From assembly GCA_045589295.1 (NCBI GenBank), contig JAZNOU010000020.1, positions 1 through 64,000 on the forward strand: DNA of 64,000 bases, read 5' to 3'. The translations under genes were made by a program, and so were the position numbers. The notes beneath the pieces were generated by a model. That model was not told the origin of the DNA. It saw only the letters and a list, made by a program, of their open reading frames with translations, and searched no databases. The stretch's first letter is position 1. Each line of letters begins with the position of its first letter. Below are positions 5,211 to 64,000 of this stretch, one piece after another. This DNA is from Clostridia bacterium (GTDB lineage: Bacteria > Bacillota > Clostridia > RGIG6154).

Positions 5211-5948
5211 ATGGAACTTAGAATTTGTAAAAACAGTGAAGAATTAGGCAAAAGTGCTGCGAAACACGTTGCACAGGTTTTAAAAGATGTTATTGCAGAA
5301 AAAGGTTATGCAAGACTTTGCCTTTCAACAGGGGCATCACAGTTTGATACATTAAAAGCATTGGTAGAAGAACCAGGCGTTGAATGGAACAAAGTTGAAA
5401 TGTTCCACTTGGACGAATACGTTGACCTTCCTATTACACATGTTGCAAGCTTCAGAAAATATTTACAGGAACGTTTTGTTGATAAAGTTGGTCCTTTAAA
5501 AGCGGTTAACTTTGTTGACGGAACTAAAGAATGCATTGCAAAACTTACTGAAGAAATAAGAAAAGAACCTATCGACATCGGTCTTATCGGTATTGGCGAA
5601 AATGCTCATATCGCATTTAACGACCCACCGGCAAACTTTGACACAAAAGAAGCTTACATAATTGTTGATTTAGACGAACGTTGCAAAAAACAGCAGATGG
5701 GCGAAGGTTGGTTTGCTACAATTGACGATGTTCCAAAACAGGCTGTTTCAATGACAACATATCAGATTATGCAGTGCAAACGCATTGTTTCTTGCGTACC
5801 TAACGCTGTTAAAGCTGAAGCTATTAAAAACACACTTTCAGCCAAAGAAGTTACTCCAATGGTTCCGGCTACACTTCTTTCAACACATCCGGACTGGTTA
5901 TTGTACGTTGATGAAAACAGTGCTTCAGGAATTTTAAACTTAAACTAA
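5211..5948 (+). CDS. nagB: Glucosamine-6-phosphate deaminase family protein (NagB-like, copy 2)
   Basis: LSTGASQ, FHLDEY, GIGENAHIAFNDP. Confidence 0.82.
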   Translation: MELRICKNSEELGKSAAKHVAQVLKDVIAEKGYARLCLSTGASQFDTLKALVEEPGVEWNKVEMFHLDEYVDLPITHVASFRKYLQERFVDKVGPLKAVNFVDGTKECIAKLTEEIRKEPIDIGLIGIGENAHIAFNDPPANFDTKEAYIIVDLDERCKKQQMGEGWFATIDDVPKQAVSMTTYQIMQCKRIVSCVPNAVKAEAIKNTLSAKEVTPMVPATLLSTHPDWLLYVDENSASGILNLN

Positions 5949-6103
5949 TTAAAAAGTAAAATAAGTTTTTATCAAACATTTGCTAAAACGTTCCTAAAGC
6001 ATTATTAAAACATTTAGGTAAATCCATGATAACTAAACCTCCCCCTTAACTCTAAAGTTACGGGGGTTATGGTTTTAGTAGGGATTAAAAAGGAGTAAAT
6101 ATT

Positions 6104-7294
6104 ATGAAAAAAAATCTCATTTATAATGCAAAAGTCATCACCCCTGCGCGCGTGATTGAAAACGGCTTTGTTGTTTATGAAGATGGAAAGATTACGCAGG
6201 TAGGACAAAACGTTGATTTAAGCGCATTTGATTGTGAAAAATTAGATGCTAAAGGAAACTATCTCTCCCCCGGATTTATCGACATTCACTGTCATGGTGG
6301 CGGAGATGCAGACTTTATGGATGGCACTTTCGATGCATACATCACAGCAGCAACTCTTCATTCAAAATATGGCACTACCGCTTTAATGCCTACCCTAACA
6401 ACAGGTCCCGATGAGGATATGATAAATTCATTTAAAATCTTCCATCAGGCAAAAAACTCAGAATACAATGGTGCAAAACTTTTAGGTATACATATGGAGG
6501 GTCCGTATTTTAATCCTGCTCAGGCAGGTGCTCAGGACCCAAGATATATTAAATCTCCTACAAAAGAGCACTACGAAATGCTCTTTAACGCCTCAAATGG
6601 AGCCATTGCAAGATGGAGTGTTGCCCCCGAACTTCCTGGTGCTGCTGAGTTTGGTAAATTTTTAACACAAAAAGGTGTCCTGGCATCAATCGGTCATACA
6701 AATGCAATTTATGATGATGTTTTGGTTGCATTTGAAAATGGGTTTAATCTTTTAACACATTTCTACAGTGGAATGTCTACCATCACAAGAGATTCGGAAG
6801 GATATAGACAACTTGGTGTTATCGAAAGCGGATATGTTATAGACGATATGTGTGTTGAACTTATTGCAGACGGTCATCACCTGCCAAAAGAAATACTTAA
6901 ATTAGTTTATAAATCAAAAGGAGCAGACAAAATTGCTCTTGTAACCGACTCAATGCGCGGTGCTGGTATGCCCGATGGTGAAACTGTTTTAGGAAATATT
7001 GATACAGGTCTTAAATGCATAATCGACCGCGGTGTTGCAAAACTTCCTGATAAAACTGCATTTGCCGGAAGTGTTTCAACTGCTGACAGACTGGTAAGAG
7101 TTATGCACAAAATCGCAGATGTTAATATTGTTGATTCAGTTAAAATGATGACTTTAACACCTGCAAAACTCATCAATATGGATTTGACAAAAGGTTCAAT
7201 TACAGTTGGGAAAGACGCCGATCTTGTTATATTTGATGACAATATTAATGTTTCACTTACAATAGTTGAAGGAAAAACTGTTTATAAAGCATAA
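6104..7294 (+). CDS. nagA: N-acetylglucosamine-6-phosphate deacetylase family amidohydrolase
   Basis: PGFIDIHCHG, HMEGP, APE, GHTNA, ADGHH, VTDSM, FAGS. Confidence 0.92.
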   Translation: MKKNLIYNAKVITPARVIENGFVVYEDGKITQVGQNVDLSAFDCEKLDAKGNYLSPGFIDIHCHGGGDADFMDGTFDAYITAATLHSKYGTTALMPTLTTGPDEDMINSFKIFHQAKNSEYNGAKLLGIHMEGPYFNPAQAGAQDPRYIKSPTKEHYEMLFNASNGAIARWSVAPELPGAAEFGKFLTQKGVLASIGHTNAIYDDVLVAFENGFNLLTHFYSGMSTITRDSEGYRQLGVIESGYVIDDMCVELIADGHHLPKEILKLVYKSKGADKIALVTDSMRGAGMPDGETVLGNIDTGLKCIIDRGVAKLPDKTAFAGSVSTADRLVRVMHKIADVNIVDSVKMMTLTPAKLINMDLTKGSITVGKDADLVIFDDNINVSLTIVEGKTVYKA

Positions 7295-7321
7295 AAAAGA
7301 GGGCATAAGCCCTCTTTTTTT
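7293..7321. terminator. Bidirectional intrinsic terminator
   Basis: AAAAAAGAGGGC-ATAA-GCCCTCTTTTTT. Confidence 0.85.
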
Positions 7322-7325
7322 ATGC

Positions 7326-8183
7326 TCAAAACACTATACTGTGAGTTTTTATCATTGTCTGCTTTGGCGGGATTTTCAAAATTCCCGCTTTTTTTGCTAT
7401 GTCTTTGTCCGTGTCAAAATAGTCGGGAATTCCGCACCAAGGTTCAAAGCAGATATATTCTGCATCTTTTGTAGTCCATATACCAAGGTAATCAAAGCCG
7501 TCATATTGTATTTCGATTTTCTCGCCTGTTTCATTGTTTTTAATCCACGCTTTTCTTGACTTTAAGTCAGAAAATACAAGTGTATCTATCTCGGGTACAA
7601 AATATTTATATGAAAGTTTGATTTCACTTGTGTTTTTGCCCACATTAAAAGTATTTCTTCCTAAAAGTGCACCTTTTAACATAATTGAATTAAAATCTTC
7701 GATATGTTCAAATATAATGCTGTACTTTTCAATTCCGCCGGGACAAGCATAAGCTTCGTGTGCACCAATGGAACAATACATATCATTTTCGGTCAAATTT
7801 TTAATGCTGTAATCAACCTTAAGTTTTTCTCCCTCTAGAGTATATATAAGTCTTAGTTCAAAATCAAACGGGAAACACTTTTTTGTTTCTTCAGTTGATT
7901 TTAACAAAAAAGTAGCTTCTACGTCTTGGACACTTTCAGCTAAAAACTCACTTTTACTTGCAAAGCCGTGCTTTGTAAGATTATATTTTTTACCTTCCAG
8001 AATATACTCGTTATCTTTAACCATTCCGCAGATGGGAAATAAAACAGGCGCGTGCTTGTTCCAGAAGCCTTCTGCTCCCTGCCAGATCATTTCTTTTTCA
8101 GCCTTTTTTACACTTTGAATTTCAGCACCCAGCGTTGAAATTGTAACATTTAAATACTCATTCTTAATAGTTATATTAGCCAT
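7326..8183 (-). CDS. Aldose 1-epimerase family protein (LacX-like)
   Basis: GAEIQS, WQG, APVLFP, HGFA, ICFEPWCG. Confidence 0.9.
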   Translation of the reverse strand: MANITIKNEYLNVTISTLGAEIQSVKKAEKEMIWQGAEGFWNKHAPVLFPICGMVKDNEYILEGKKYNLTKHGFASKSEFLAESVQDVEATFLLKSTEETKKCFPFDFELRLIYTLEGEKLKVDYSIKNLTENDMYCSIGAHEAYACPGGIEKYSIIFEHIEDFNSIMLKGALLGRNTFNVGKNTSEIKLSYKYFVPEIDTLVFSDLKSRKAWIKNNETGEKIEIQYDGFDYLGIWTTKDAEYICFEPWCGIPDYFDTDKDIAKKAGILKIPPKQTMIKTHSIVF

Positions 8184-9472: not shown

Positions 9473-10102
9473 CTATTTTATAATGAGTTTGATAAGTAAG
9501 TTGTTGTTATAGAAATATTTTAATATGTTTGTAGACTGAAGAACTTCGTTAATTGAAGTGAAAACAGGTGTTGCTGCAAACAATACTGCAACAGCCAACA
9601 CAAGCCATAGAACTATAACAGATGAAACAACACCGCAAACTGTGCCACCTGCGTGATTTAAAAGATTAAGCACAGGAAGTTTCATAATAATTTCCAAAAC
9701 GCCCTCAAACAATCGAAGAGCAAGCTTTACCAAGAGATAAACAATTACTATACATAAGACACTCACTAAAATATTTGTTACTGAACTGCTTAATGCCAGA
9801 TTTGTTTCATTTATTGTTTCCCCGGCAATCTCCAAGAGCCAATCAGGCAGCCTTGAAACACTGTCTTGTTGTGATGCGGCAATGAATTGAGTAATTTTTT
9901 CCTCTATTAAAACAATCTTGTCCTTTATAAAAGGAACACTTATTATGTACTCGCTTACAGGTTTGTATACAACTGCAGTAATTATCCCGGAAGCAACAAA
10001 AGAAACAAGCCCGAAAAGGCCTTTAACAATCCCCTTTTTATATCCTTTAGCAGCAAATATCCAGATTAGTATTATACACGCTAAGTCAAGTATTAAACTC
10101 AA
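9473..10102 (-). CDS. CvpA family membrane protein
   Basis: N-terminal LD...GYKKG motif, four TM segments, LNHAGG. Confidence 0.75.
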   Translation of the reverse strand: MSLILDLACIILIWIFAAKGYKKGIVKGLFGLVSFVASGIITAVVYKPVSEYIISVPFIKDKIVLIEEKITQFIAASQQDSVSRLPDWLLEIAGETINETNLALSSSVTNILVSVLCIVIVYLLVKLALRLFEGVLEIIMKLPVLNLLNHAGGTVCGVVSSVIVLWLVLAVAVLFAATPVFTSINEVLQSTNILKYFYNNNLLIKLIIK

Positions 10103-10116
10103 GCATTACACCGCCT

Positions 10117-11226
10117 TTAATTTCTACCGTATCCTAATTTATATACACCAAGCATACTTTCTGACAATGTAAAAATGTGTTTCCCATCATCTGCAAGCTT
10201 AATGCTTTTGGCATCTTTGAGCATATCACCTGATGCTTTTACGTTCCCCCACGAACTTATCAAATATAATTTGCTTAAATTTGAAACAATTACCTTTCCT
10301 TTATTTTCGTCAATCATTTTAGCAACGCCGTCAATTATGTCGCTGCCTTTTTCTTTTAGTGAAGAATTTAAAACTATAATTTTACTTCCTGCCCCCTCGG
10401 AATTGCTAATTGCAACTGTCGGCATATTGGTGTTTTTAATATCAAAGCACAAAAGGTCATGTCCTGCAAAATCATATTTTTTCTTCAATTTACCACTTTG
10501 TGAAAAAAGTCTTAAACCACTGTCTGTAATAACTAAAACATTTTTACCGCTATATTCTAATTGATATGCAAGTTCAGAATCCAATATAACTTCACATACA
10601 GGGTTGTCCTCACTTGTTTTGAAAAATTTCACTATTGACTTTAAGCTGTCTTCTGAGTTAATTCCAACTACTGCAAACCTTTTGTTATTATCCGATATTT
10701 TTACGTCTACTGCATACAAATCGCCGGAATACCAAGTGTAAATCTTACTGCCCATATTGTCATATATTACAACAGTGGATTTATACCCGCTTTCGTTTGT
10801 AAGTACTGCGGTATATCCATTTTTATTTACACTTATACTTTTAATTGGCTCTTTTTCACTGATTTTATAAAGTTGCTTGTTATTTTTAAGCACAATAGCA
10901 TTTGGTGCACCTATATCTGCCACCACTGCAAATCTTTCTCTAGTATAGATGTATGGCGAGTATAGTTTAAAGGCTATATCTGCCTCATAATCACCTTTAT
11001 TGTTATAAAACTCTACACCTTTTGAATTAACCACCGTCATATACCCATTATACTGTTCAAAATCATGTTCCGATATAACAGACGGAGTTATGGTTTTTTG
11101 TGTGTCCTTAATATTCATTCCTGCAATCAATGAAAACAAGAACTTGCCGACACTTATTAAAACTGCAAGCACCAGCACTATTACTATAATAACTGTTACA
11201 AGTTTTTTCACATTAACTTTTTTCAC
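10117..11226 (-). CDS. Membrane-anchored beta-rich protein (DUF5711-like)
   Basis: N-terminal TM anchor then propeller-like repeats (VNKNGYTAV...GYKSTVVIYD); position between truA and cvpA. Confidence 0.6.
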   Translation of the reverse strand: MKKVNVKKLVTVIIVIVLVLAVLISVGKFLFSLIAGMNIKDTQKTITPSVISEHDFEQYNGYMTVVNSKGVEFYNNKGDYEADIAFKLYSPYIYTRERFAVVADIGAPNAIVLKNNKQLYKISEKEPIKSISVNKNGYTAVLTNESGYKSTVVIYDNMGSKIYTWYSGDLYAVDVKISDNNKRFAVVGINSEDSLKSIVKFFKTSEDNPVCEVILDSELAYQLEYSGKNVLVITDSGLRLFSQSGKLKKKYDFAGHDLLCFDIKNTNMPTVAISNSEGAGSKIIVLNSSLKEKGSDIIDGVAKMIDENKGKVIVSNLSKLYLISSWGNVKASGDMLKDAKSIKLADDGKHIFTLSESMLGVYKLGYGRN

Positions 11227-11237
11227 TTGTTTTCTCC

Positions 11238-11972
11238 TTAATATTCAACACTCTTAAGATAAAGTCCCTGAGGCGGTGCCGTAATCCCTGCCAAACGTCT
11301 GTCCCCGCTTGAAACGATTTTTTCAACATCTGAAGGATTAAGTTTGCCTCCTCCAACATACATCAAAGTACCCGCTATAATTCTTACCATATTATATAAA
11401 AAGCCGTTAGATGTAATTGAAATTTCAATGTCATCACCATCTTGTGTCAGGGTTAGGTCATAAACTGTCCTTACAGTTGTTTTAACCTGCGCTCCTGACG
11501 CCATAAAACACCTAAAATCATGCTCACCAATAATATGTTTTGCAGACTCACGCATTTTTTCAATATCAAGCTTGTACTTGTAGTGGCAAGAATATTTTTT
11601 TAAAAACGGGTTTGGAATTTCACTGTTGTGGATTTTATAGATATAGGTTTTTCTCTTTACTGAAAATCTGCCATCAAAGCTATCTGACACATCTTTTGCC
11701 CCGATAACTGAAATATCTTTCGGCAATATACTGTTTAAAGCAACCGGATACTTTTCTGTTGGCATAGAAGAATTTGTTTTAAAAGACAAGACATAATTTA
11801 AGGCATGGACTCCCGAATCGGTTCTTCCGCATCCCGAAACGGTTATTTTTTCCTTGGTGATTTTACTTAAAGCGTCTTCAATTACCTGCTGGATTGTTAC
11901 AAATCCGCTCTGACGCTGGTATCCAAAATAATTTGAGCCATCATACATAAGGGTAAGTGCAATGTTTTTCAT
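11238..11972 (-). CDS. truA: tRNA pseudouridine(38-40) synthase
   Basis: YDGS, GRTDSGVHA, FLYNMVR, TAPPQGLYL. Confidence 0.97.
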   Translation of the reverse strand: MKNIALTLMYDGSNYFGYQRQSGFVTIQQVIEDALSKITKEKITVSGCGRTDSGVHALNYVLSFKTNSSMPTEKYPVALNSILPKDISVIGAKDVSDSFDGRFSVKRKTYIYKIHNSEIPNPFLKKYSCHYKYKLDIEKMRESAKHIIGEHDFRCFMASGAQVKTTVRTVYDLTLTQDGDDIEISITSNGFLYNMVRIIAGTLMYVGGGKLNPSDVEKIVSSGDRRLAGITAPPQGLYLKSVEY

Positions 11973-11978
11973 ATTTTT

Positions 11979-12782
11979 TCACCCCGTAAATATGTTCAAT
12001 ATGATAATCAATATAATAAGTGCAAAGGTGAGAAAAAGTGCAATATAATCACGATTTTTGCATTTGAGCACCTTTAATTTTGTTCTCCCATCTCCGCCTC
12101 TGTAACAACGACATTCCATTGCAGTTGCAAGCTCATCTGCTCTTCTAAACGAACTTATAAAAAGCGGAATAAGTATTGGTATCATAGCTTTTGCACGGCT
12201 TAACAGACTTCCTGATGTAAAATCTGCACCTCTTGCACTTTGTGCTTTTATAATTTTATCTGTTTCTTCAAGCAATGTAGGAATAAATCTTAAGGCAATT
12301 GTCATCATCATCGCAATTTCGTGAGATGGCACCTTAATTACTTTTAGGGGTTTTAAAAGCCTTTCAATTCCGTCTGTAAGCATAATAGGTGATGTTGTAA
12401 GTGTTAAGAGTGTTGTTGCCGTTACAAGCAAAAATAGTCTTAAAACCATTACAAACGCAAGTAATACTCCTTCATAAGTTACTCTTAAAAACCACCATTT
12501 AAAAAGCACACGCCCATCCGTTAAGAAAACATTTATGACAGCTGTAAAAATCATAATGAACAAAAGCGGTTTTAAGCCTTTAAAAATAAATCCTACAGGA
12601 ACTCTGCTTATTACAACACTAACTACAATAAAAGCAGTGCACAAAAGATACGAATAAAAAGATTGTGCAACAAACAGACCCACTATTATTGCCATAGCAA
12701 TAACAATTTTAATCCTTGGGTCTAATCTGTGTATTATTGAGTTTGCAGGATAAAACTGTCCCAATGTAATGTCGCCTAACAT
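11979..12782 (-). CDS. ecfT: ECF transporter transmembrane T component
   Basis: LDPRIK, IALRFIP, AQSARG, AMECR. Confidence 0.95.
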   Translation of the reverse strand: MLGDITLGQFYPANSIIHRLDPRIKIVIAMAIIVGLFVAQSFYSYLLCTAFIVVSVVISRVPVGFIFKGLKPLLFIMIFTAVINVFLTDGRVLFKWWFLRVTYEGVLLAFVMVLRLFLLVTATTLLTLTTSPIMLTDGIERLLKPLKVIKVPSHEIAMMMTIALRFIPTLLEETDKIIKAQSARGADFTSGSLLSRAKAMIPILIPLFISSFRRADELATAMECRCYRGGDGRTKLKVLKCKNRDYIALFLTFALIILIIILNIFTG

Positions 12783-15351: not shown

Positions 15352-16155
15352 TTAAATTCTATATATAATATCTGCTATTGCATGGTCGTTATTACTTTTA
15401 GTAATTCTGTCTGCAACTTTTTTCAAATTTTCTGTAGCATTTTGTGTTGCATAGCTCAATCCTGAAGCCTGTATAAGTTCAATATCATTATCGTTATCTC
15501 CTGCAGTAATAACATTTTTTAAATCAACATTTAAAATGCCGCAAAGTTCTTTTAAGGCATTTCCTTTATTTACGTCTTTTCTCAAAATTTCATAATACCA
15601 CTTATGTGACTTTAAAAGCTTGTACTCGCTTTGATAAACAGAATTTTCAAGTTCAGTATACATACGCTCGGTTTCATTTTCTTCTTGGGCAAATAAAATT
15701 TTTATTATAGGACCTTTAACATCTTCTATATTGCAATCAAGATGTGTTACACAAGAAATGTTTTCAAGTTTATGATGCCTGCTTGTTGCATTATTTTCTT
15801 TTACAAATGCAATATCATACAGCCTGTAAAACTCGATCCCTGAAAACGGAAACTTTTGAGAAATTTCTTTAGTAATTTCGATTGCGCGTCTGTCTATTGA
15901 TTTGTAACTGACATATTCTTTTTTGTTGACATCATAAATTGCACTTCCATTTTGGCAAACTACAGGAATCTTAATAAACTCATTTAACACGCTTGGAATT
16001 GTAAATGGTATTCTTCCTGTGGCAATGGTAAAAATGCCACCATGTTGTGTAAAATACCTAATCGCCTCAATATTTTCTTCCGACACATTGTTTTTGTCAT
16101 TTGTTAATGTTCCGTCAATGTCGGTACAAAGCATAACGCCTTCAAATTTTTTCAT
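15352..16155 (-). CDS. Cof-type HAD-IIB phosphatase
   Basis: DIDGT, ATGR, NKG, GDNDND. Confidence 0.93.
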   Translation of the reverse strand: MKKFEGVMLCTDIDGTLTNDKNNVSEENIEAIRYFTQHGGIFTIATGRIPFTIPSVLNEFIKIPVVCQNGSAIYDVNKKEYVSYKSIDRRAIEITKEISQKFPFSGIEFYRLYDIAFVKENNATSRHHKLENISCVTHLDCNIEDVKGPIIKILFAQEENETERMYTELENSVYQSEYKLLKSHKWYYEILRKDVNKGNALKELCGILNVDLKNVITAGDNDNDIELIQASGLSYATQNATENLKKVADRITKSNNDHAIADIIYRI

Positions 16156-16164
16156 TTTTGACTC

Positions 16165-17985
16165 CTAAATTCTGTTCAGAACTCTGTAGTTATTTACTTT
16201 TATAACAAGCTTAAATAAAAGTGATAAAATAATTGAAAGCCACACTGCCGATGAACCATTTAAAATCATTATAAAAAGTATAGTTTTTAAAATAAGTTCA
16301 AATATAAAATTAATTATCATCAAAGCTTTTGTGCTTGACAAAACGCCGATATACTGCGCTGCTGCTGATAAATCCTGCGTATTAAAGTTAGCATCAAATC
16401 GCAAATCCGGCTCATAATCGTAAGTGATAACAGGTGATGATGATAAAAGTTCTGCATCAATTCCATCAGCCAAAACAAGCCATTTTTTACCCAAATTATC
16501 TATATGCTCTTTAATTTCAGTCCTTGTAAGATCACCAAATGCCGCCGACATTCCGCAGCTTATTGCAGCAGAATCTGCTGTCCTTTGGCTTTCCTGTGAT
16601 AAAACAACCGTTTTCTTAATTCCGTGCAGTCTTAAAGCATCAATTGCCTGCTTTGCATTTTCTTTAACAAAATACTCAAACTCAACATAACCAATGTACT
16701 CGCCATTTACCGCAACACAAATTTTATTTATATCGTTTGGTATATCTGTGCGTATCCCTACTCTCAACAATGAATCAGCAGGACCCGACAGCACCTCAAT
16801 CCCTTCCATTTTTATAATTGCGGTGTTATCGTCAATCTTCATATAATTCTTTATAAGTCTTTTGTCAACTTTTTTACCGATTTCATTTACACACGCACCT
16901 AAAATTCCTTTGTTGATTTTATACTGAGAATACGCAGTAAAGAGCAAAAGTTCATCTTTTGTTGTTTTGGGACTTGGATATGCCGATCTGACAGAAGGAA
17001 ATCTGTTTGTAATTACACCTCTTGTAAAAAATGCAACATTTTTCACACTGAGTGTCTTTTCAATAAATTTGTTTTTTGCAACTATTATACCTTTTTGGGC
17101 ACTTTTTAAAACTGCAGTTTTGTATCCGTCAGGAATAATACTCTGAAGACCTGAAAACGATGAAAATATAAACACCATAGGGACAGTATAAACCAAATAT
17201 TCCCAGTTGCTTATATCTTTTATAAATTTAACTCCACAAAAAATCCAAAGTGCCACAACAAAAATCAGTGAAAGAACATTACATATAACATTCCCATAGT
17301 TTTCCATTGTTGTTTTTCCGCTGGATGCCCCTTTAACCTTTTCAACAGACTTTGCAAGTTTGCTATCTAAAACAGATGTTGCAGCTTCTACAATTATGTG
17401 ACCATTTAATAGTGTGTATCCTGCCAAAACTTCCGTGCCATTTGAAACAGTAATTGCCTTGCTGTCGCCGCTGATATTAACCGCATTTATTGTGCCTGTT
17501 CCTGCTTTAATAACACCATCAACAGGCATAACTTCACCTGAGAAAAGCTCAACAAAATCACCGTGATAAATATCAAGTGCATTTGTTATTTCAGAGTTTC
17601 TGTCAGCTACTGTATGATATTTTTTCTCCTTAATATCTTCAAAAAGTTCCAAAAGTTCCGAATCTAAGTTGAAAACCGAATCCATTGCAGATGCGGTGAA
17701 TGAATATAAAAGAGCGCACCAAAGAGCATTTGAATTCTTCTGACAAACCAAAAGATAAACAAATGCTGCAATACACATAAAATCCAGATTAAAATACTTC
17801 TTAGCCTTAAAATCCAAAACCATAGACTTAAGCCTTGGAAACATAACAAGCACTAAAGCAATAACATTAAATACGGTGTTTAAAAAATTGTCAAAACTAA
17901 AAGACAAAAAGAAAAATATAACACCAAGTGACATTATAAAGCTGTTGAAAACTTTAAAATCTATTTTTATTTTTTTTAAATTCAT
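16165..17985 (-). CDS. P1B-type (CadA/ZntA-like) ATPase homolog lacking its catalytic motifs
   Basis: Collinear by eye with the CadA at 62608-64000 (GEVMPVDG, KGIIV, IINFIF..K) but DKTGT, TGE, CPC, HP, TGD and GDGIND are altered; 606 aa uninterrupted. Confidence 0.85.
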   Translation of the reverse strand: MNLKKIKIDFKVFNSFIMSLGVIFFFLSFSFDNFLNTVFNVIALVLVMFPRLKSMVLDFKAKKYFNLDFMCIAAFVYLLVCQKNSNALWCALLYSFTASAMDSVFNLDSELLELFEDIKEKKYHTVADRNSEITNALDIYHGDFVELFSGEVMPVDGVIKAGTGTINAVNISGDSKAITVSNGTEVLAGYTLLNGHIIVEAATSVLDSKLAKSVEKVKGASSGKTTMENYGNVICNVLSLIFVVALWIFCGVKFIKDISNWEYLVYTVPMVFIFSSFSGLQSIIPDGYKTAVLKSAQKGIIVAKNKFIEKTLSVKNVAFFTRGVITNRFPSVRSAYPSPKTTKDELLLFTAYSQYKINKGILGACVNEIGKKVDKRLIKNYMKIDDNTAIIKMEGIEVLSGPADSLLRVGIRTDIPNDINKICVAVNGEYIGYVEFEYFVKENAKQAIDALRLHGIKKTVVLSQESQRTADSAAISCGMSAAFGDLTRTEIKEHIDNLGKKWLVLADGIDAELLSSSPVITYDYEPDLRFDANFNTQDLSAAAQYIGVLSSTKALMIINFIFELILKTILFIMILNGSSAVWLSIILSLLFKLVIKVNNYRVLNRI

Positions 17986-18010: not shown

Positions 18011-18046
18011 AAAAAAACAAGCCCCAAGAAAATGCTCTTGGGGCTT
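18011..18046 (-). terminator. Intrinsic terminator after tRNA-Gly
   Basis: AAGCCCCAAGA / TCTTGGGGCTT stem then GTTTTTTT on the minus strand. Confidence 0.8.
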
Positions 18047-18050
18047 TACA

Positions 18051-18125
18051 TGGAGCGGAAGACGAGATTCGAACTCGCGACGTTCACCTTGGCAAGGTGA
18101 CGCTCTACCACTGAGCCACTCCCGC
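18051..18125 (-). tRNA. tRNA-Gly(GCC)
   Basis: Reverse complement GCGGGAGTGGCTCAGTGGTAGAGCG-TCACC-TTGCCAA-GGTGA...GTTCGAA...TTCCGCTCCA. Confidence 0.97.
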
Positions 18126-18146
18126 ATGTTGTCTTGAACAACAAAT

Positions 18147-18175
18147 ATAATACCATATTTTTTGGCATTTGTAAA
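18147..18175 (-). promoter_or_regulatory. Putative sigma-A promoter for tRNA-Gly
   Basis: TTTACA, 17 bp spacer, TG-n-TATTAT on the minus strand; A/T tracts upstream. Confidence 0.7.
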
Positions 18176-62607: not shown

Positions 62608-64000
62608 CTATTTAAGTGTTCTTATTGAGTTGAAAATTGCAACAACAGATACACCGACATCAGCAAACACCGCCGCCCACATTCCCGCAAGCCCTGATGC
62701 ACCCAAAATCATAACCATAAATTTTACTGAAAGCGCAAAAATAATGTTGATTATCACAATTTTTATAGTTTTTCTTGAAAGTTTAATTGCTTCGGCAATT
62801 TTTAAAGGGTTATCCTCCATAAGCACAACATCTGCCGCTTCCATTGCCGCATCAGTTCCGTTTAATCCCATACCTACACCAACATCAGCCCTCATTAAAA
62901 CAGGGGCATCGTTTATCCCATCGCCTGCATAAAGGGTACAGCCTTTCGACATAATTTCTTCGAGTTTTTTTATCTTATCTTCGGGAAGTAAACCAAAATG
63001 CACTTCATCTACCCCAACATCGCGTGCAACTTTAATTGCTGATTTTTCTCTGTCTCCTGTAAGCATAGCTGTCTTTGTTATGCCAATACTTTTAAGTCTG
63101 TCCAGAGCACCTCTCGCATCTTTTTTAATTACATCCGAAATTACAATATACCCTAAGTATTTATCGTCAAATGATATGTGCACCACTGTACCAAAATCCT
63201 GGGCATCATCAACGTCTATTCCTGCCATTTTCATAAGCTTTGAATTGCCCGCATATATCTTACCGTCGCTTGTGCTTGAAATCACCCCAAGACCTGCAAT
63301 TTCATCACACTTTTTCACAAAAGATATATCTATTTCCTTGTTGTATGCTTTTTTTAATGAAACCGCTATAGGATGACCTGAAAAGCTTTCAGCAACCGCA
63401 GCATATTCCAAAAGCTTATTACTATCTGTACCAACAGCATTAATCTGGATTATTTTGAAAACTCCTTCGGTAAGGGTACCAGTCTTGTCAAAAACTGCAT
63501 TTTTAACTTTTGCAAGAGTTTCTATAACGCCGCCACCTTTAATAAGTATACCTTTTTTTGACGCCCCACCTACTGCGCTAAAAAACGCAAGTGGAACGGA
63601 TATGGCAAGTGCACACGGGCACGAAACCACCAAAAACAAAAGCCCTCTTTTAACCCATACATAAACAGACTGCCCTAAAAGCACAGGAATTACTGCAATC
63701 AAAATTGCACAAAGCACCACCAAAGGCGTGTAGTATTTTGCAAACTTTGTTATAAACTTTTCATGCACCGCCTTTTTACTTGCAGCAATTTCAACAAGCT
63801 CTAAAATTTTAGCAGCCGTCGATTGACCAAAACTTTTTGTTGTTCTTACTTTTATAACACCACTTAAATTAATACACCCGCTCAAAACATCGTCGCCCTC
63901 GCACAAAGCAACAGGAGCAGGTTCACCTGTTATGGCTTTTGTATCGACAGTTGTCTTGCCTGACACAACCACTCCATCAAGCGGAATTTTCTCACCTGGT
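62608..64000 (-). CDS. cadA: Zn/Cd-type heavy-metal P1B ATPase, 5' part beyond the window
   Basis: PGEKIPLDG, TGE, SCPC, DKTGTLT, HP, TGD, GDGINDAP, FADVG all intact. Confidence 0.93.
   Translation of the reverse strand, partial: PGEKIPLDGVVVSGKTTVDTKAITGEPAPVALCEGDDVLSGCINLSGVIKVRTTKSFGQSTAAKILELVEIAASKKAVHEKFITKFAKYYTPLVVLCAILIAVIPVLLGQSVYVWVKRGLLFLVVSCPCALAISVPLAFFSAVGGASKKGILIKGGGVIETLAKVKNAVFDKTGTLTEGVFKIIQINAVGTDSNKLLEYAAVAESFSGHPIAVSLKKAYNKEIDISFVKKCDEIAGLGVISSTSDGKIYAGNSKLMKMAGIDVDDAQDFGTVVHISFDDKYLGYIVISDVIKKDARGALDRLKSIGITKTAMLTGDREKSAIKVARDVGVDEVHFGLLPEDKIKKLEEIMSKGCTLYAGDGINDAPVLMRADVGVGMGLNGTDAAMEAADVVLMEDNPLKIAEAIKLSRKTIKIVIINIIFALSVKFMVMILGASGLAGMWAAVFADVGVSVVAIFNSIRTLK

Follow-up and report, generated by a model that had tools for sequence, protein, structure and literature searches.

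What use could a bacterium have for a metal pump from which the catalytic motifs have all gone? The question is raised by a 606-amino-acid (aa) open reading frame (ORF) on the minus strand at 16165..17985 (stop codon included) of a 64,000-nucleotide (nt) stretch of DNA from an uncultured gut Clostridia bacterium (assembly GCA_045589295.1, contig JAZNOU010000020.1, positions 1 to 64,000), which we refer to as the window. A preliminary description, made from the letters of the window alone, had placed the ORF exactly there, had found it free of stops, and had read it as a P1B-ATPase homologue retained as a non-catalytic membrane protein. We reach a similar view—the product is likely a functional, non-catalytic descendant of a Zn/Cd-type (P1B-2) ATPase, here called the pseudo-pump, that would serve as a scaffold or regulator and is probably transcribed by read-through from an upstream tRNA gene.

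Motif losses within a P1B-2 framework

The frame opens with an ATG (at 17985) preceded at a distance of 8 nt by a Shine-Dalgarno-like GGTGA, and it runs to its end without an internal stop. Its product had been aligned by eye with a CadA-type gene elsewhere in the window (62608-63999, minus strand), and BLASTP bears this alignment out, with 25% identity (120/489 columns, E = 2e-23, query residues 150-604) and a co-linear, full-length correspondence; homology to CadA is thus far beyond chance. That paralogue, a catalytically intact P1B-2 pump of 607 aa (62608..64000, minus strand, continuing to 64380 in the contig), carries every catalytic motif and scores 453 bits against TIGR01525. It is also the best match in the window genome, outside the pseudo-pump clade itself, to a profile built from that clade (215 bits). 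The GC content of the pseudo-pump gene (0.334) and its third-position GC content (GC3, 0.270) are like those of neighbouring genes and give no sign of recent import.

Hidden Markov model (HMM) searches recovered only one of the two domains that the preliminary description had named for this protein. The Pfam model E1-E2_ATPase (PF00122) reached 69.6 bits over residues 121-271, above its cut-off of 28.1, and the model Hydrolase (PF00702) reached 23.1 bits, below its cut-off of 26.4. Scores against the heavy-metal models of NCBIfam were all far under their cut-offs (313-397)—the best, TIGR01525, at 126.7 bits against 346.25, the Cd/Zn model TIGR01512 at 113.7 bits against 313.5, and the Cu model at 86.9 bits—leaving PF00122 as the only one to pass. 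The best solved relative was ZntA (4umv, E = 1.3e-15, query residues 42-605).

All seven motif replacements that had been read from the sequence are present in the alignment and hold at the level of codons. In the actuator (A) domain, TGE has become SGD, such that the TGES loop reads SGDS; in the M4 metal site, SCPC has become SSFS, with SSF in place of CPC (17155-17163); and the phosphorylation loop FDKTGT has become FFTRGV, with no Asp (17014..17031, minus strand). The nucleotide-binding HP is replaced by KG and the GxG position reads DDNTA, TGD has become SQE, GDGINDA has become ADGIDAE, and ADVG of the last helix reads LSLL, with the M6 Asp gone. The E1/E2 cycle and the occlusion of metal depend on the DKTGT Asp, the Mg and phosphate ligands of TGD and GDGxND, and the CPx site. 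Because these motifs have been lost, the pseudo-pump could not pump as P1B ATPases do—neither an E1/E2 phosphoenzyme cycle nor occlusion of a metal at the canonical site would be possible—and what selection preserves would then be shape.

Structure prediction returned a P1B fold with confidence for this sequence. With a mixed input alignment (55 rows, including 35 ordinary pumps), AlphaFold2 gave a predicted local distance difference test score (pLDDT) of 87.3 and a predicted template modelling score (pTM) of 0.82; a clade-only alignment of 20 rows, used as a control against ordinary pumps imposing their fold, gave 85.7 and 0.81 with the same secondary structure. Both models contain four N-terminal membrane helices, a beta-rich A domain, M3, M4, the phosphorylation (P) and nucleotide-binding (N) domains, M5, and M6, which is the canonical eight-helix arrangement, and both break M4 at residues 275-277, the exact position of CPC. 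The top Foldseek matches were to ZntA 4umw (E = 1.6e-31 for the mixed and 7.2e-32 for the clade-only model), with 4umv and CadA 7qbz also among them; CopA 7r0g was matched at TM scores of 0.76 and 0.74, respectively. On the strength of these two models, we are confident that the pseudo-pump retains the canonical P1B architecture.

Mapped onto the window (all minus strand), the four N-terminal helices, residues 10-104 (17674..17958), are modelled at 10-28, 34-60, 67-80, and 84-104 and would by position be MA, MB, M1, and M2. The A domain, recognised by Pfam E1-E2_ATPase, spans residues 119-222 (17320..17631) and is the best conserved part of the protein. M3-M4, residues 226-297 (17095..17310), is modelled as helices 226-256 and 261-274 and, after the break, 278-297, with the M4 kink kept and CPC lost. 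The P and N domains, residues 298-538 (16372..17094), keep their predicted fold and have lost HP, GxG, TGD, and GDGxND in the alignment, and M5-M6, residues 540-603 (16177..16368; model helices 540-576 and 581-603), has lost the M6 Asp and keeps N559 and K567 in the window copy.

The architecture was the one P1B feature found among those that we tested; DKTGT, the complete CPx/M6 Asp/M5 Lys set, TGES, the nucleotide-site and P-domain motifs, and, PF00122 apart, scores above the curated HMM cut-offs were all lacking. With these five defining features absent, the pseudo-pump falls, judged by its sequence, outside the P1B ATPase family as defined by function. What it does display are the marks of a pseudoenzyme, namely homology combined with loss of catalytic residues, and purifying selection across species.

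Retention and selection across the order

A word-indexed search recovered ten full-length relatives at 67-75% identity together with one 414-aa fragment, and the next matches, at 24% identity, were ordinary pumps with DKTGT. When 1.84 billion representative proteins were scanned with HMMER, ten rows appeared at E ≤ 6e-50, seven of them full-length (607-621 aa) and three shorter (148-428 aa), followed by a gap to 3e-36, where ordinary pumps began. A survey of 18 species genomes from the order, which comprises a single family in the collection used, found a single-copy orthologue in 17 of them, spread over six genera at 26-81% identity. Copies from the same genus are 70-81% identical to the window protein, and the other five genera encode a protein of ~600 aa that shares 26-31% identity with it and is matched at E-values of 1e-60 to 1e-86, versus about 1e-29 for the CadA paralogue. 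The frame is uninterrupted in 16 of the 17 copies, and those of genomes G009 and G017 are truncated where their contigs stop. A locus search with P0001 alone returned one locus, on the contig already represented by G003. Of eight clade clusters that we looked up, none carries a name, and the ESM Atlas yielded ordinary P-type ATPase clusters only.

Motif loss extends throughout this clade. DKTGT, CPC, TGD, and GDGxND were each found in 0/17 genome copies, the last being mostly deleted, and the M6 Asp in none of the 16 copies long enough to include M6. The Asp of the phosphorylation loop stands alone in two copies, those of both genus g6 genomes (FDVAGV); HP is present in 2/17 (genus g3) and TGES in 4/17 (genus g4). 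An Asp-less clade had been put forward as a prediction, with close homologues that keep DKTGT as the outcome that would speak against it, and no such homologue was seen among the 17. The residues that replace the phosphorylation loop differ by genus—FFTRGV, FEP[AS]GV, FDVAGV, FSV[KR]GV, FRKQGV, and FST[IF]GV—and share only the initial F and the final GV; genus-specific replacements around a fixed, backbone-shaping Gly-Val are what would be expected once the chemistry is lost and the local backbone alone matters. Invariant residues of the clade include Y123, G150, E151, P154, D156, and G173 in the A domain, and N559 of M5; the M5 Lys, present in the window copy, is not kept clade-wide. In a FastTree phylogeny of 147 rows, the clade sits on one long branch (support 100, stem 0.74; midpoint root, with long-branch effects applying).

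The coding sequences bear the imprint of purifying selection. The ratio of nonsynonymous to synonymous divergence (dN/dS), calculated by the Nei-Gojobori method for 13 within-genus pairs, was 0.065-0.129, below 1 as had been predicted, with the values rough because dS (0.9-2.1) is near saturation. A comparison of dN across three genes in the same three genomes is free of this problem: dN was 0.116-0.159 for the pseudo-pump, 0.202-0.248 for CadA, and 0.185-0.207 for the adjacent Cof-type HAD phosphatase, and amino-acid identities were 75-82%, 66-71%, and 70-72%, respectively. The pseudo-pump is therefore the most constrained of the three within the genus. Between genera, identity peaks at 0.38 in the A domain and at 0.37 where the P domain begins, drops to 0.24 in residues 1-118, and reaches its minimum of 0.22 in M3-M4, a segment that at 0.61 is among the most conserved parts of a canonical pump pair. 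As far as these conservation values indicate, selection is directed at the headpiece and the overall fold and not at the former ion path. Clade-wide retention, low dN/dS, dN under that of CadA, and a confidently predicted fold all agree with the earlier proposal of a retained, non-catalytic membrane protein.

The upstream tRNA gene and the genomic neighbourhood

Directly upstream of the pseudo-pump, between PFOR and the ORF, lies a feature that the preliminary description had overlooked together with its terminator, a tRNA-Gly(GCC) gene (18051..18125, minus strand; Rfam tRNA 68.5 bits, E = 5.2e-15; also called by ARAGORN). It is preceded by a promoter-like site, TTTACA-17-TATTAT, with TG before the -10 hexamer (18147..18175, minus strand; 10/12 matches), and followed by a terminator-like hairpin of 12 pairs and a T run (18019..18046, minus strand, from the sequence) that lies between the tRNA and the ORF. 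From the T run to the pseudo-pump ATG there are only ~25 nt, Shine-Dalgarno sequence included. The same order of promoter, tRNA-Gly(GCC), GC-rich hairpin with T run, Shine-Dalgarno sequence, and ATG recurs in 10/15 assessable loci and in four of the six genera (g1, g2, g3, and g5)—in the window (18019-18175, minus strand) and at L002, L003, L004, L011, L012/L018, L020, L021, L023, and L024—and a comparable CTTTACAAA...TATAAT-like stretch precedes the tRNA at each of the nine loci outside the window. The cassette lies 20-35 nt upstream of the start codon at loci whose proteins share only 26-31% identity between genera. Among the remaining loci, the tRNA is split off by three genes in G008, four have no tRNA in the available stretch (three of genus g4, and G013), and two are unassessable at contig ends. 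The tRNA-Gly(GCC) gene is thus a conserved neighbour of the pseudo-pump.

Since the space between T run and ATG leaves no room for a normal promoter, we infer transcription by read-through of the tRNA terminator. This spacing suggests that the pseudo-pump is expressed in that way; it would probably have no promoter of its own, and its transcription would be low and coupled to growth rate. Precedent exists in Escherichia coli, where tufB is transcribed together with upstream tRNA genes. One metatranscriptome library contained a single 211-nt contig identical to 16739-16949 at a depth of 3.6, with DNA carry-over possible; this run yielded 10% of sampled words and otherwise tRNA pieces from many organisms. 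Four further pieces, 137-312 nt long and each differing from the gene at one position or none, came from a second run of unspecified type.

The tRNA itself is ordinary, with an identical second copy on contig C2. In the 1.54-Mb genome of the window (G000), tRNA-Gly(GCC) is the sole tRNA in three copies among 42 tRNA genes (C2 670-744, C20 332-407, and C20 18051-18125), two of them identical and the third differing at several positions. Two ideas about this region were dropped: that the promoter-like site and hairpin form a riboswitch or attenuator leader, as Rfam shows that both flank the tRNA-Gly, and that the tRNA is a special cell-wall tRNA-Gly, an idea raised by an amidase gene nearby in g2 and g5, as it looks ordinary and is identical to the C2 copy. 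P0007 and the gene calls at L011 and L024 extend N-terminally through the tRNA-Gly, with a stretch like 'REWLSGRASPCQGERREFES', and such forms of 656 aa or longer are annotation artefacts.

Downstream, the pseudo-pump heads a tight minus-strand run consisting of HAD, an S-adenosylmethionine (SAM) methyltransferase, ecfA, ecfA', ecfT, truA, a DUF5711 protein, CvpA, and rho. The first of these, a Cof-type HAD phosphatase (15352..16155, minus strand; Pfam Hydrolase_3, 1e-55), has an intact DxD motif and follows after the 9 bp that had been reported. Conserved linkage to the HAD-methyltransferase-ecf-truA block, which the preliminary description had proposed as a check, stood within genus g1, where HAD adjoins the pseudo-pump in 4/4 genomes, and failed outside it, with adjacency in 0/4 examined genomes of three other genera (G015, G011, G008, and G007). 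In the sister genome G002 (L014, G002:C21, about 6226-7025), a rough list of ORFs has only a 109-aa plus-strand ORF in the 800 bp that separate HAD from ecfA, and the 288-aa methyltransferase of the window, missing from this list, may have been lost or degraded there. The DUF5711 protein lies between truA and the CvpA-family gene at 10120-11226 of the window (minus strand; Pfam 3.1e-32).

Other genera have other neighbours. In genus g4, a 769-839-aa protein without a Pfam match lies upstream, and a 148-aa protein without a Pfam match and an ABC exporter (ABC_membrane + ABC_tran) lie downstream; the flanking coordinates are 5548-8064 and 10287-12364 at L015, and 5537-7614 and 10035-12341 at L017. 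In genus g5, the gene is flanked by an amidase on its upstream side and by uvrBA on the other. In G008 (genus g6; L016, G008:C47, 5225-10367), an ASCH-domain gene, an intact cadA, and arsR stand between tRNA-Gly and the pseudo-pump and look inserted into an ancestral junction of tRNA and ORF. Adjacency to cadA was rejected as a conserved feature, as it occurs in G008 and was not found in G013, the second g6 genome, or in seven other loci searched; in the window, CadA lies 45 kb from the pseudo-pump.

Rival readings and known systems

Several observations weigh against the interpretation as a retained scaffold or regulator. Genome G005 is 96% complete and lacks the gene, also by the clade profile, and the G004 copy (L011, G004:C101, about 2587) has one in-frame TGA beyond which homology continues; some lineages can therefore do without the gene or have lost it. 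The TGA may be a sequencing error or may mean that the gene has become a pseudogene in G004, and the 428-aa representative P0032 has the length of the truncated frame. Some chemistry may also persist in part of the clade, to judge from the Asp of genus g6, the TGES of genus g4, which has a Glu one position past the former Asp, and the HP of two genus g3 copies. With respect to expression, a weak promoter overlapping the terminator could serve in place of read-through, and the RNA-library contig is no proof of transcription, as DNA may be present, just as gaps in its coverage of the gene say nothing. No protein-coding neighbour is conserved beyond the genus among the loci examined, and the putative role of scaffold or regulator is assigned by elimination.

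That elimination can be followed through the rival readings. A decaying pseudogene—a dead CadA duplicate that has yet to gain stops—would account for the loss of all catalytic motifs, the TGA in G004, and the absence from G005, but it is exceedingly improbable given a frame of ~600 codons intact in 16/17 copies across six genera at 26-31% identity, dN/dS values of 0.07-0.13 and a dN under that of the active paralogue, and a fold predicted with confidence from clade-only covariation. The intact pump architecture, M4 kink included, could instead point to a transporter that is still energised by non-canonical chemistry, through another acidic phosphate acceptor or a different membrane substrate site. 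The Asp kept in g6, the Glu one position later in g4, and the clade-wide invariance of N559 fit such a transporter; all four HAD-type motifs and HP/GxG have nevertheless been lost together, what replaces them varies from genus to genus, M3-M4, once the ion path, changes fastest, and Pfam Hydrolase stays below its cut-off, all of which make this reading very unlikely.

Among pseudoenzymes, regulation of an active paralogue by a dead one is common, and the pseudo-pump might accordingly be a non-catalytic partner, as heteromer or regulator, of the CadA-type Zn/Cd pump in the same genome. Its nearest subgroup is Zn/Cd (TIGR01512 ahead of the Cu model) with ZntA as best solved relative, the genome encodes an intact 607-aa CadA, and in G008 the gene directly follows cadA-arsR. 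We still consider this unlikely, as adjacency to cadA holds in one of nine clade loci checked, the window counted, and as G003, G004, and G012 lack a CadA-type match of 590-660 aa to the P0001 query, which is weak evidence in genomes that are 91-94% complete. A further candidate is the adjacent Cof-type HAD, which would supply the lost HAD chemistry in trans: the 9-bp gap, the shared strand, the pairing in 4/4 genus genomes, and the intact DxD speak for it. This partnership is nonetheless highly improbable, because the linkage is absent from four genomes of three other genera though the pseudo-pump is order-wide, and because HAD evolves faster than the pseudo-pump; Cof-type HADs are, moreover, common soluble sugar-phosphate phosphatases. 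Under the preferred interpretation, a non-catalytic descendant of a P1B-2 pump, the cytoplasmic headpiece would bind a partner, and the protein, anchored in the membrane, would most likely serve as a scaffold or regulatory subunit.

A phosphorylated Asp is the defining feature of P-type ATPases. Order-wide retention of a protein without this Asp and without the metal and nucleotide sites, under tighter selection than CadA, implies that the fold must have a second, non-pumping use. In open-access papers and bioRxiv, we came across no bacterial P-type ATPase homologue described as lacking its catalytic Asp, and we found no curated family model that captures the pseudo-pump clade; prior characterisation of the clade, which would have counted against the initial proposal, was accordingly not seen in these sources. 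The P-type fold is reported to occur in a signalling or regulatory setting, and not as a stand-alone pump, in alveolates, where P4-ATPase-like modules are fused to guanylate cyclases (PMC6592433, PMC13466520, 10.1101/2020.09.07.285734); one of these papers describes the activity of the ATPase module as essential. Unlike the pseudo-pump, the alveolate modules are eukaryotic, of P4 type, and fused to cyclases, and the module with essential activity is not a dead domain.

Loss of the Asp may not be confined to this clade. Nine of 137 non-clade rows of at least 560 aa from the representative-protein search also lack it, with N, S, or A instead; such rows may be overrepresented, since the ranking favoured sequences resembling a degenerate query. 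These P1B-like proteins (P0046, P0056, P0086, P0108, P0113, P0134, P0143, P0146, and P0160), all from metagenomes, have variously degraded CPC, TGD, and GDGxND motifs and sit on long branches near the base of the FastTree phylogeny, where long-branch attraction may play a part. In its source, P0056 carries the label 'Cd2+/Zn2+-exporting ATPase', P0086 had no relative in the genome contigs searched, and P0113 was matched there at 23-34% identity only. From these sequences, dead P-type pumps look recurrent, and the present clade is a clean, order-wide, P1B-2-derived example.

A bolder extension, which we regard as doubtful, is that the P-type fold serves here as an ATP-independent scaffold or regulatory subunit with a specific partner (CadA or a cell-envelope enzyme), that its dosage is bound to growth rate by tRNA read-through as the sole route of transcription, and that with the other Asp-less lineages it forms a recurrent, undescribed class of pseudoenzymes. 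If the second use were identified, membrane pumps would join the enzyme families known to have given rise to regulatory pseudoenzymes. Such a finding would also correct automatic annotation of the kind attached to P0056, and counts of metal-resistance genes in gut metagenomes may be inflated by dead copies. The arrangement of tRNA, terminator, and ORF offers in itself a compact natural example in which a protein-coding gene seemingly depends on terminator read-through.

Among known systems, KdpB of the KdpFABC complex appears in the structural matches of the pseudo-pump models and offers one point of reference, being a P-type ATPase subunit that acts on a partner membrane protein and does not carry the ion via its own canonical site. 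KdpB retains catalysis and belongs to an operon with a defined partner, whereas the pseudo-pump has neither catalytic motifs nor a conserved partner gene. The CadA of the window belongs to the same genome and length class at 25% identity; it alone of the two has all catalytic motifs, and it evolves faster. Compared with the P1B-2 pumps ZntA and CadA, the pseudo-pump lacks DKTGT, CPC, TGD, GDGxND, HP, and the M6 Asp and forms its own long-stemmed clade. It is without an N-terminal HMA domain, like the 607-aa CadA of the window, and with Shigella ZntA (4umv/4umw) and the CadA-type structure 7qbz it shares co-linear, full-length homology and the same predicted fold of eight helices and A, P, and N domains.

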